Shown: one piece after another, positions 61,616 through 64,000 of the stretch
How the letters are laid out: every line of letters begins with the position of its first letter
Numbering within the stretch: the stretch's first letter is position 1
From: Pedosphaera sp.
GTDB taxonomy: Bacteria > Verrucomicrobiota > Verrucomicrobiia > Limisphaerales > JADLHS01
Length of the DNA stretch: 64,000 nucleotides
Assembly (NCBI GenBank): GCA_009695195.1
Contig: SIBJ01000010.1
Span: forward strand, 145-64,144
Direction of reading: 5' to 3'
Position numbers and translations under genes: made by a program
Notes under the pieces: model-generated
The model's database searches: none
Told to the model about the DNA's origin: nothing
Seen by the model: the letters and a program-made list of their open reading frames with translations, nothing else

Positions 61616-64000
61616 TTAATCGCACATTTTCAGGAACGCGGTCTCGTCAATGATCTTCACCCCGAGCTTTTGCGCCTTCTCCAATTTTGACCCGGCCTCC
61701 TCGCCCGCGAGAACGAAATCCGTTTTCTTGCTCACACTGCCGCTGACTTTGCCGCCGAGCGCTTCGATCTTCGCGGTCGCGGCCTCGCGCGTCATCGTCG
61801 GCAGCGTGCCGGTGAGCACAAAAGTTTTGTCCGCGAGCGGCCCGCTCGCCGCCGCCGGGTTGTAAAGTTCGGATTTGAAATTCAGACCGGCCTTGCGCAA
61901 TCGTTCGACGAGCTTGCGGTTCTGGGCATCGCCCCACCAATCCACGAGGCTTTGCCCAATGACTTCGCCGATGTCCTCCGCCTCCATCAACTGCTCCGCG
62001 CCGGCGCCGAACACCTGGTCCAGCGTGGGAAAATGCCGGGCGAGTGATTTGGCCGCGCCCGCGCCGACGTGCAATATTCCCAGCCCGTAAAGCACCCGCC
62101 ACGCGTCGCGCGTCCGGCTGGCGGCGAGCGCATCGAGAAAGTTTTGCGCCGACTTCTCGCCCATGCGTTCGAGGTTGGCGAGTTCGTCGAGTTTGAGTTT
62201 GTAGAGTTCCGCGACGTCGAGCACGAGGCCGGCCTTCACGAGTTGCGCCACGAGCGCCTCGCCGCCGCCTTCGATATCCATCACGCCGCGCGCGCACCAG
62301 TGCTCGATGCGCCCGCGCACCTGGGCCGGGCAATCGGGATTCGGGCAGCGCCAGACGGCTTGGATGTCGGCAACGGCCGTCGGCGGAGCGCCAGGTCTTA
62401 GTCGGGCGATTTGCAGGTCAATGGGCAGGATGCCGGCGCGCGTGGAAATGAAGTTGTCGCGCTTCGCATCGAGGATGACGGTTTCATCGCTTTCCCGCCG
62501 CCAGCCGAAGAACGCACCCGGGATCGTCACGAAGCCGCGACGGGACAGATATTCCGCCACGGCGGAATCGGCGGGGTGCGGGTCGGAAGGATCCACGGCC
62601 TCCAGCCACGGTTGCGAAATGACGAACGAAATTCCACCGGCCGGCTGGCCGATGATCAACGACGGCCCGGAGGAAAACATCACGCCTTCCAACTCGATGG
62701 CATCTTCAAAAAGTTGGTTCTGGAGTTGCATCCGTTCCAGATATTCGAGCGGCGAAGCGGGCGCGGCTTTCCAGAGGCCTTTTTCGAGTTTGGGAACAAA
62801 ACCAAATGTGCCGGGGTGGGTGCGTTTGACGGCGCGTTGGTCGGCGGCTCGGAAGCGGACTTCATGTTCGGCGGTGGCCGAGGTGATGAGTTTATGCTTC
62901 AACCACCCGGTCTCGGCGATCAGGACTTTTCGCCGTTGCGCCCATTCACGCAGGCGCTGCTGCTGGAACTCGACCGTCGCCATTCCTCCGACGCTTTGGC
63001 CTGTTGCAACACCCGCTCCAAGGTGGGCGGCGGCAGCTTGGCCAAGGTGGCCCGGGCCGCTCGATCCTCCGGATGCGGCGGCAACAGCGACGGCAGTGGT
63101 TTGTGATCCCGCTTTTTCATCGCCACCAGAATCCTCCACTCCCGGTCCGGCGTCAACTTTGCCTTTCGCCACTTTCGAGCCGCACTCGGGACAGGTTTTG
63201 GGAAAGATAAAATTTTTCTCGCCGCCCGCGCGCCGGTTCAACGCCACGCTCACGACGGCGGGAATGACTTCGCCCGCCTTCTCGATCACGACCGTGTCGC
63301 CGATGCGGATGTCCTTCTCGCGGATGTAATCCTCGTTGTGCAACGTGGCGCGGCTGATGGTGCTGCCGGCGAGGAAAACGGGTTCGAGTTCGGCCACCGG
63401 CGTGAGCGCGCCCGTGCGGCCGACCTGCACCGTGATGGCGTTGAGCCGGGTCTCGGCCTGCTCGGACGCGTATTTGTAGGCGATGGCCCAGCGCGGCGCC
63501 TTGGCCGTGGCGCCGGCGCGGCGTTGCTGCGCAAAGGAATTCAACTTGATGACCGCGCCGTCGGTTTCGTAGGCAAACTGTTTTCGCGCCCGATCCAACT
63601 CCTCGATGGCAGCGATCAATTCGTCCTCGCCCGCGCAGAACCACGTGCGCTCGGGCGTCTTGAAGCCAAGTTGTTTCAACCATTCGAGCAACTCGCGCTG
63701 CGACTGCGGACTCTGGACTCTGGACTCTGGACTTTCGACCTGTCCAACGCCATAGAGCATGATGTCGAGCGGTCGTTGCGCGACCAGCTTCGGATCCAGT
63801 TGCTTCAACGAACCGGCGGCGGAGTTGCGCGGGTTGGCGAAGACTTCCTCGCCGGCGGCTTTGCGTTCCGCGTTCATCTTCTCGAAGCCCGCCTTCGTCA
63901 TGTAAACCTCGCCGCGGACTTCGACGACCGCGACGGTTTCCCGCAATCGCAACGGCAGGCTGCGGATGGTTTTGAGATTCGCCGTGATGTCATCGCCGTG
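61616..64000 (-). CDS. ligA: NAD-dependent DNA ligase (5' end off window) with kinase-like insert in the Zn finger
   Basis: [52 protein letters not shown], HhH repeats, BRCT (VLTGTL..SVSKKTD..GSKLEKA). Confidence 0.96.
63707..63734. repeat. (TGGACTC) x~4 heptamer inside ligA
   Basis: CGGACTC TGGACTC TGGACTC TGGACTT; encodes [10 protein letters not shown]. Confidence 0.8.

Follow-up and report, generated by a model that had tools for sequence, protein, structure and literature searches.

Evidence for a Kinase-PolyVal-type domain within the zinc finger of a verrucomicrobial NAD-dependent DNA ligase

The gene for NAD-dependent DNA ligase (ligA) described here is the last gene of a window of 64,000 nucleotides (contig SIBJ01000010.1, positions 145 to 64,144), taken from a freshwater verrucomicrobial genome (Pedosphaera sp., GCA_009695195.1, hereafter G000), a metagenome bin of 162 contigs that is 91% complete. 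Exactly 278 residues (62348-63181, minus strand) stand between the second and the third cysteine (Cys2 and Cys3) of its LigA zinc finger, and the evidence presented below supports their assignment as a Kinase-PolyVal-type protein-kinase-like domain. Both points had been put forward in a sequence-only reading of the window: the length of the split agrees exactly with our recount from the frame, and the resemblance to Kinase-PolyVal is borne out by the Pfam matches of homologues, the hallmark residues of the family and the predicted fold. In E. coli LigA the same spacer has about 14 residues. Taken together, the kinase identity of the insert, its retention in LigA, the selection acting on its core and its spread by recombination form an interpretation that we consider likely.

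The insert, read on the minus strand throughout, consists of a first linker of 68 residues (62978..63181), a Kinase-PolyVal-type core of 196 residues (62390..62977) and a second linker of 14 residues (62348..62389). Linker 1 is composed of G, A, S, P and T to 65% and is single copy in the genome. Its middle is predicted to be disordered (residues 101-129 of the 518-residue model described below, with a predicted local distance difference test score, pLDDT, below 50), while a conserved motif of 15 residues (63008..63052), located by alignment with stand-alone homologues, is predicted to form a helix (model residues 135-149, pLDDT about 80-88). Since this motif aligns with the N-terminal region of the stand-alone homologues, almost a whole small gene appears to have been captured. 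The last residues of linker 2, VWR, correspond to the returning strand of the finger hairpin; a strand was modeled at residues 367-369, and the pLDDT was below 50 at residues 359-363. The guanine plus cytosine (G+C) content of the core, 0.57-0.60, compares with 0.62-0.67 in the flanks, a dip too small to argue a foreign origin from base composition, which was rejected. At the ends of the insert, the search for terminal direct or inverted repeats gave only short chance-like matches.

The core was identified from PF18762, homologues, the structural model, structure matches and substitution rates. The motifs listed in the sequence-only reading were all in place in the G000 gene. These were AEHEV (62858-62872), which holds the family-specific Glu37 before strand 2 (62867..62869); AVK, with the putative ATP-binding Lys51 of strand 3 (62825..62827); YLERMQLQN (62717-62743); SQPW (62606-62617), which holds Gln122 (62612..62614), the family-specific Gln of the last N-lobe strand; the catalytic loop DAKRDN with Asp170 and Asn175 (62453..62470), which aligns to the HRD...N of Hanks kinases; and PID (62417-62425), which holds Asp187 (62417..62419), the equivalent of the metal-binding Asp of DFG. 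The passages of Iyer et al. (2017; PMC5512222) that deal with Kinase-PolyVal describe it as a minimal kinase of the Ser/Thr/Tyr type, found in the polyvalent proteins of phages and conjugative elements. It has lost the C-lobe while retaining its active site, and it is marked by a Glu ahead of strand 2 and by a Gln in the final strand of the N-lobe. In the part of PMC9758233 that concerns it, the family is assigned by Pfam to the PKinase clan. Six residues (K51, G59, R82, D170, N175, and D187) were invariant in an alignment of 85 family members and all six are present in G000, while E37 and Q122 were conserved in at least 90% of the family. The whole C-terminal subdomain is absent from the insert: the core ends 9 residues past D187, and 14 more residues precede Cys3.

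When the insert was compared with profile hidden Markov models, PF18762 was matched with an E-value of 6e-4 over profile positions 4-153 of 160, at 20.2 bits, a score below the curated cut-off of 27. Homologues matched better: seven of ten close homologues (five ligA inserts and five stand-alone genes) were recognized at E<=1, the best with E 3.4e-13, and two members found with a profile of the insert scored 64.7 bits (P0084) and 44 bits (P0059) on PF18762. With a profile of the core, 1,937 representatives (E<=1e-3) were retrieved from a set of 1.84 billion proteins. Solo proteins of 220-290 aa made up most of them, and many were giants of 2,000-4,400 aa; among ten mid-length matches that were scanned, some were fused to ART-PolyVal, LPD3, InPase or Mu portal domains. 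In addition, 29 of 30 ESM Atlas matches fell in Kinase-PolyVal clusters, which were commonest in Verrucomicrobiota. In IMG/VR, the profile scan (alignment A2) gave 2 loci, and one contig carried a Kinase-PolyVal domain in an open reading frame (ORF) of more than 2,152 aa.

The insert core has a protein-kinase-like fold, as judged from a structure prediction. The AlphaFold model of the 196-residue core, which ends after the strands following the catalytic loop, reached a pLDDT of 95.8 and a predicted template modeling score of 0.90. In the Foldseek search of this model, all listed matches were kinases or pseudokinases (best E 1.6e-3), and the best target-normalized TM-scores were those of the minimal effector kinases NleH1 and OspG (0.39-0.47 for these two and YihE/SrkA). 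An exhaustive comparison with VIA-align agreed with this, as the 50 best matches listed were all kinase-like, with Z-scores of 5.9-7.6, headed by YihE (7.6), OspG (7.2), Rad53 (7.2), and NleH1 (7.1) and followed by RIO, APH, Haspin and Bud32. These matches span only the first 150-220 residues or so of full kinases.

Some results weigh against this identification, in addition to the Pfam score given above. Foldseek returned nothing at E<=0.001, and every structural Z-score was below 8, so that the assignment of the fold rests on the unanimity of the matches and on the sequence family and not on any single strong match. The alignment of the insert with the Hanks kinases of the same genome by hhalign was weak (probability 6%), and the sequence search of the PDB yielded nothing beyond a Ser/Thr kinase (E 0.9) and NS5 (E 1.1). 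It must be noted that these weak PDB and hhalign comparisons align the same catalytic loop.

With respect to the ligase itself, a larger model was built of 518 residues, comprising the oligonucleotide/oligosaccharide-binding (OB) domain, the finger, the insert and the helix-hairpin-helix (HhH) domain. Its mean pLDDT was 87.2, and confidence was low only at the middle of linker 1 (101-129), at residues 152-155 and in linker 2 (359-363). The first half of the finger, CPEC, with Cys1 and Cys2 (63182..63193, minus strand), was modeled with a pLDDT of 96 at residues 81-90; the second half, CPNPDC, with Cys3 and Cys4, lies at 62330..62347 on the same strand and is covered by a partial PF03119 match. 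The model superposed on DNA-bound E. coli LigA (2OWO) with a Z-score of 28.6 and a root-mean-square deviation of 1.8 A over 254 residues. These correspond to residues 321-575 of 2OWO and are spread over model residues 1-518, so the two finger halves take the positions that they have in the real enzyme, while the other residues, about 264, loop out. The zinc finger is thus predicted, by a method that has seen LigA structures, to close as in solved LigA with the kinase looped out, which answers the question of closure that the sequence-only reading had left to structure prediction.

That reading also held that the domain should stay in the mature ligase, and our data support this expectation. 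Inteins are typical of essential replication and repair genes, and the removal of the insert as an intein or intron before the ligase acts would leave an ordinary enzyme; we nevertheless regard this as very improbable. Pfam families of Hint domains or inteins were absent at E<=1 from the window part of LigA, and no intron or other RNA family of Rfam was found at E<=1 in 61000-64000. The insert runs from GSKVAK to IQAVWR, with Gly-Ser and Trp-Arg at its ends and no HN[CST] motif; thus the terminal residues of inteins are lacking at both ends, as had been claimed. Moreover, the frame is unbroken in all carriers and the insert folds as a kinase in the model. The scan for internal promoters detected 0 promoter-like sites, and terminator-like sites numbered 3 against 4.3 expected. 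From its sequence, therefore, the insert should be part of the mature ligase.

Given that the genome is a fragmented bin of 162 contigs, an assembly or binning artifact that joined a kinase gene to ligA was also considered, and we regard it as exceedingly improbable. Independently assembled Logan contigs bridge the two junctions without differences, one from a second sample (X2 record 10, covering 62365-63500) and one from a second study (X3 record 18, covering 62310-62559), which provides the sequence support over both junctions that the sequence-only reading had named as a check. Among the sequencing runs listed as containing this sequence, none was of RNA. In addition, the same architecture, placed at identical codons, recurs in seven other genomes that stem from different projects and in 12 database clusters. 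Other candidate joints within ligA, such as 63283-63471, were discarded; their sides of 22-31 nt lie in conserved ligase sequence and come from the ligA of other organisms.

Substitution rates were compared over eight pairs of carriers. The ratio of nonsynonymous to synonymous rates (dN/dS) was 0.07-0.22 in the kinase core and 0.05-0.42 in the ligase backbone, so the constraint on the core is as strong as that on the ligase. The corresponding values were 0.43-1.34 in linker 1, which is near neutral, and 0.13-1.11 in linker 2. A census of 21 sequences of carriers, of which 8 came from genomes and 13 from databases and 19 were distinct, showed K51, N175 and D187, as well as E37 and Q122, in 21 of 21, and D170 in 20 of 21, in carriers that are only 53-64% identical. 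The purifying selection on the core and the preservation of its catalytic residues argue that the kinase has some function and is more than a passenger. The sole exception at D170, the ligA carrier P0163, has Asn instead and may be a natural kinase-dead variant.

In this regard, it could be thought that the insert is a pseudokinase or nucleotide-sensing module that binds ATP, another nucleotide or a partner without phosphate transfer and tunes the activity or localization of the ligase allosterically. Such a module would be in keeping with the loss of the substrate-binding C-lobe in a minimal kinase and with the Asn of P0163, and the NAD+ dependence of LigA makes a coupling to an ATP sensor conceivable. 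It is, however, decidedly unlikely: the catalytic Asp, the Asn and the metal-binding Asp are kept in 20, 21, and 21 of the 21 carriers and in all 85 aligned family members, which would be unusual for pseudokinases.

The insert was found in few ligA genes. Among 35 distinct ligA genes, the spacer between Cys2 and Cys3 measured 14-23 aa in 30 and 278-281 aa in the other five (G000, G003, G009, G023, and G026), and among 20 further ligA loci it measured 20 aa in seven and was a low-complexity stretch of 36-65 aa in 12. In the taxonomic family of the window, 8 of 36 genomes hold a Kinase-PolyVal domain, in five cases within ligA; in the order as a whole, 60 of 401 sampled genomes, including the unpublished genome G339, hold the domain, mostly as solo genes. 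Three ligA carriers belong to two other families of the order (G277, G185, and G258), which brings the total to 8 genomes of one verrucomicrobial order. When 185,579 species were scanned with a pattern, the seven other carriers were recovered and no further ones, all seven being metagenome-assembled genomes of Verrucomicrobiota. The carriers listed in the family and order surveys have exactly one copy of the domain each, that in ligA. In a collection of 5.8 billion proteins, 12 ligA-sized clusters had the insert. None of these 12 had PF18762 among its precomputed domains, and the source names, where given, were LigA or 'helix-hairpin-helix domain-containing protein' and never kinase. The alignment of ligA over relatives, also suggested by the sequence-only reading, thus revealed presence and absence of the insert and alternative cargo at the same site.

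The ligA genes of the order fall into two deeply split backbone types, A (CPEC...CPNPDC) and B (CPAC...CQNVAGC). Genus-mates may differ in this respect: the G000 gene is of type A, and that of its genus-mate G001 (L046) is of type B with a 37-aa filler, while G014 has a type A gene within a genus otherwise of type B. These mismatches may be due to replacement of ligA by transfer or to binning errors, as G001 and G014 are fragmented bins. A third architecture was observed in P0003, a protein of 447 aa composed of Met, linker, kinase, only the second half of the finger (CPNPDC) and HhH before the stop, without ligase catalytic domains and without BRCT. The G258 fragment (L065:1-1029) ends in the same way.

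In a backbone tree of 66 rows from which the insert had been removed, the 19 carrier rows were scattered, with 11 gains or losses needed, at least 8 of them forced by supported branches. The non-carrier G014 was nested among carriers, which points to a loss. Its spacer of 39 aa, checked for a deletion scar, offered no more than a resemblance in ENxVWRC. In contrast to this scatter, the ligA inserts grouped together in quick trees and, with support 80/81, in a careful tree of 44 rows; in a careful tree of 55 rows, two long-branched solo proteins split them into two groups. A single clade of ligA inserts was not rejected by the approximately unbiased (AU) test (p 0.10), and the inserts are compatible with a single origin. 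Those hosted by type B genes (100/98) nested within those hosted by type A, and forcing the latter into one clade cost 18.8 log-likelihood units (AU p 0.02), in a test whose groups were partly named after the trees had been seen. The insert was most likely captured once, in a type A gene.

Traces of exchange were observed beside the insert. The flank signatures IVRGE and VFW/VLW were present in 5/5 type B genome carriers and in 0/37 type B non-carriers, and a type-A-like C-x4-C knuckle was present in 10/12 distinct type B carriers and in 0/37 non-carriers. The partner with the higher DNA identity changes close to the junctions, over a distance of about 15-40 codons from them. Thus, the identity of G009 to its backbone neighbor G021 was 0.83 far upstream and 0.62, 0.48, and 0.71 in three insert-adjacent windows of comparison, while that to the carrier G277 was 0.71 far upstream and 0.76, 0.78, and 0.84 beside the insert; these windows at the junctions are short, only 27-75 nt. 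The scattered carriers and the shared flank signatures suggest that the cassette is exchanged by recombination between ligA alleles. Gain and loss would occur by homologous recombination, with a few flanking codons carried along.

Nevertheless, not all the results favor this history. Under the better model only 4% of the bootstrap trees gave one origin of the inserts, and a first, smaller AU test (4 type-A rows) did not reject co-inheritance (p 0.31). In addition, a second ligA, a complete one of type B, stands on a different contig of the carrier G258, and the kinase-bearing gene of this genome may be no ligase but a short paralogue.

It should be mentioned that many genomes with type B ligA (about 30/61) also have a gene of about 200-270 aa for a zinc finger plus HhH, often just downstream of ligA. 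In the example of G003 (L100:363-989, minus strand), a zinc-binding domain is followed by HHH_5 and HHH_2, with no BRCT. The finger of this type of gene is type-A-like (CPEC...CPNLDC). The 518-residue model was in addition similar to 9hu3_B (Z 15.3), the small subunit of a heterodimeric ligase from a phage. The gene could thus represent a subunit of a split ligase or a remnant, and such a neighboring paralogue would possibly also be a recombination partner.

The loop between Cys2 and Cys3 is a general landing pad for in-frame DNA. A filler of 54 aa in G024 ligA (L043:1691-1799) holds, in-frame, an element of about 63-68 nt that resembles repetitive extragenic palindromes (REP) or miniature inverted-repeat transposable elements (MITE). 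It is also present at G016:C21:83522-83586 and in G018; the three genomes contain 42, 43, and 46 matches, which have 81-95% identity and lie on both strands. A different repeat of about 51 nt, with 6-33 matches per genome, underlies the filler of 36 aa (...ELPLGQDAQQRVPT...) of G030 ligA (L048:1230-1320), which was also found in G008, G027, and G034. Both repeat-bearing fillers are common to ligA lineages that are not sisters on the backbone tree. The alternative advanced in the sequence-only reading, a mobile domain in a tolerant ligA loop, thereby gains direct support from the in-frame repeats, the scattered carriers and the traveling flank signatures; the insert itself, however, carries no mobility genes. 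Repeat-derived linkers as the mechanism of capture were rejected, given that the linker DNA of G000 is single copy; in G003, G009, and G277 only the orthologous site and one marginal match of 44 nt were recovered.

A loop of this kind leads to the consideration that the kinase gene landed once in a permissive site and is tolerated without benefit to the host, persisting since an essential gene could be freed of it only by precise deletion or by recombination with an empty allele. In favor of this, the same loop accommodates two unrelated families of REP-like repeats in-frame and, in 12 of the 20 further ligA loci, a filler of low complexity. Carriers are patchily distributed, with G014 apparently having lost the insert, and the insert has neither mobility genes nor a consistent defense context. 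Despite these points, a passenger status is unlikely. The core evolves under the same constraint as the ligase while linker 1 of the same insert drifts, and catalytic residues are kept among carriers of such low identity; an insert selected only to fold and do no harm could dispense with the Lys, Asp, Asn and Asp.

We therefore return to a retained and selected kinase, for which the following sequence of events is proposed. A nearly complete Kinase-PolyVal gene, with its N-terminal helix motif and its core devoid of a C-lobe, would have been captured in-frame at the tip of the finger hairpin, and the kinase would hang from the closed finger on the long, disordered 68-aa linker and the short 14-aa linker. 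An active kinase could then use LigA as a scaffold to reach DNA nicks or sites of replication or repair, where it may phosphorylate LigA or the proteins working at the nick. The substrate and role thus proposed are possible but doubtful, and we put them forward only tentatively. A role in conflicts between phages or plasmids and their hosts appears more likely than plain housekeeping, because other members of Kinase-PolyVal are effectors in such conflicts.

This proposal also has points against it. In the literature searched, no biochemical test of any Kinase-PolyVal member was found. The neighbors of the stand-alone relatives are mixed and mostly housekeeping, and only 2 loci adjoin restriction-modification genes: one homologue (L008:1459-2250, G042) lies between hsdR (EcoEI_R_C) and hsdM (HsdM_N, N6_Mtase) in a type I operon, and another (L010:1447-2202, G016) adjoins an N6_N4 DNA methylase and a weak PD-(D/E)XK match. 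No consistent defense-island context of the stand-alone relatives was found. Likewise, 0/10 members matched PADLOC-DB (2023 library) at E<=1, PHROGs gave one match only, at E 0.3, and tblastn against GenBank phages and PLSDB plasmids gave no match. With mixed neighbors and no support from PADLOC or PHROGs, the conflict role derives from the wider family only.

Two more specific versions can be imagined, in which LigA is a nick-seeking platform for a second activity; even together, they seem quite unlikely to us. In the immune version, the kinase would mark or disable proteins, or trigger a response, where foreign DNA offers nicks or cohesive ends. In the heal-and-seal version, it would phosphorylate 5'-OH DNA ends, so that one polypeptide heals and seals breaks, and if this were true it would be the first case of a protein-kinase fold acting as a polynucleotide kinase.

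Regarding the rest of the gene, the part of ligA within the window extends over 61616..64000 on the minus strand, with the stop codon at 61616-61618, and was identified by the NCBIfam LigA equivalog and Pfam domains. The frame continues past 64000, and the N-terminal residues beyond this point, about 141, were recovered with the full gene from the genome (L001). The full-length protein has 935 aa, counted from a likely GTG start located 19 codons 5' of HDHAYY, as in relatives. The window part alone scored 662 bits on the LigA equivalog (NF005932 / TIGR00575), with a cut-off of 369, and the domain set is complete (adenylation, OB, zinc-binding, HhH and BRCT domains by Pfam, together with KxDG and the four Cys). 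All domains are on the minus strand. The C-terminal part of the adenylation (nucleotidyltransferase) domain is at 63464..63997 (PF01653, E 3e-60), and the active-site motif EPKVDG (KxDG) lies just beyond the window edge, in the full-length frame. The OB-fold domain is at 63224..63454 (PF03120, E 6e-36; pLDDT about 90 in the model) and superposes on that of 2OWO, as does the HhH DNA-binding domain (61907..62284, PF14520 and PF12826); the BRCT domain is at 61637..61846 (PF00533, E 4.7e-16). A single ligA and no ATP-dependent DNA ligase were found in the G000 genome (91% complete); the kinase-bearing LigA is the sole DNA ligase found in it.

Three genes lie next to ligA. The one at 58865-60175, on the minus strand, encodes a DUF4912 protein whose N-terminus is rich in Lys, Ala and Pro; that at 60340-60747 encodes a response regulator with a single domain, and that at 60792-61556 a short protein similar to AsmA/DUF748. 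None of these neighbors, at 58865-61556 of the window, was phage- or plasmid-like. The Kinase-PolyVal copy described here thus lies inside a chromosomal ligA and not in a polyvalent protein or mobile element, which is a difference of context and not a defining trait of the domain family.

In the literature searched, including passages of PMC5512222, PMC9503650 and PMC9758233, there was no report of a kinase or other domain within the LigA zinc finger, nor was an earlier description found of any domain inserted into the structural zinc finger of an enzyme essential for replication. In this case, a domain family known only from the weaponry of phages and plasmids has entered a core housekeeping protein and is kept there under strong selection. 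It also offers a natural and tractable example of how an essential enzyme can accept foreign cargo in a permissive loop and later put it to use, and of cargo that spreads between alleles without mobility genes. As the LigA tether narrows the place of action to DNA nicks, it may reveal the targets of Kinase-PolyVal. It must be considered, too, that annotation missed the kinase in all 12 clusters; nested domains in core genes may be widely overlooked.

When compared with known systems, the ligase shares with E. coli LigA (2OWO) the Ia, adenylation, OB, four-Cys zinc finger, HhH and BRCT domains, and differs from LigA in general by a Cys2-Cys3 spacer of 278 aa that holds a second enzyme domain, instead of 14-23 aa. 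Multidomain heal-and-seal ligases, such as bacterial LigD and T4 Pnk with ligase, likewise couple a ligase physically to a second catalytic activity. Their partners, however, are a polymerase, a phosphoesterase or a P-loop polynucleotide kinase joined end-to-end, whereas here a protein-kinase-like fold is nested in a structural zinc finger. With inteins and selfish insertions the insert has in common its position within a conserved motif of an essential gene, its patchy occurrence among close relatives and its spread between alleles; it differs from them in that it lacks splicing residues and a homing endonuclease, is kept, and carries as cargo an enzyme domain under selection. The nearest solved folds, OspG, NleH1, and YihE/SrkA (Z 7.1-7.6 over 126-130 residues), include in OspG and NleH1 likewise truncated kinases of about 160-170 aa, but at 14-18% identity no relationship was detected at the sequence level, and the likeness is one of fold and not of family. 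With Kinase-PolyVal as described in the pertinent passages of PMC5512222, the insert shares the sequence family, every hallmark described, the bias toward Verrucomicrobia and the existence of stand-alone forms. The contexts given there are giant multi-effector proteins, portal/MuF fusions and solo genes, whereas here the domain is nested in the zinc finger of a chromosomal and apparently essential housekeeping enzyme.

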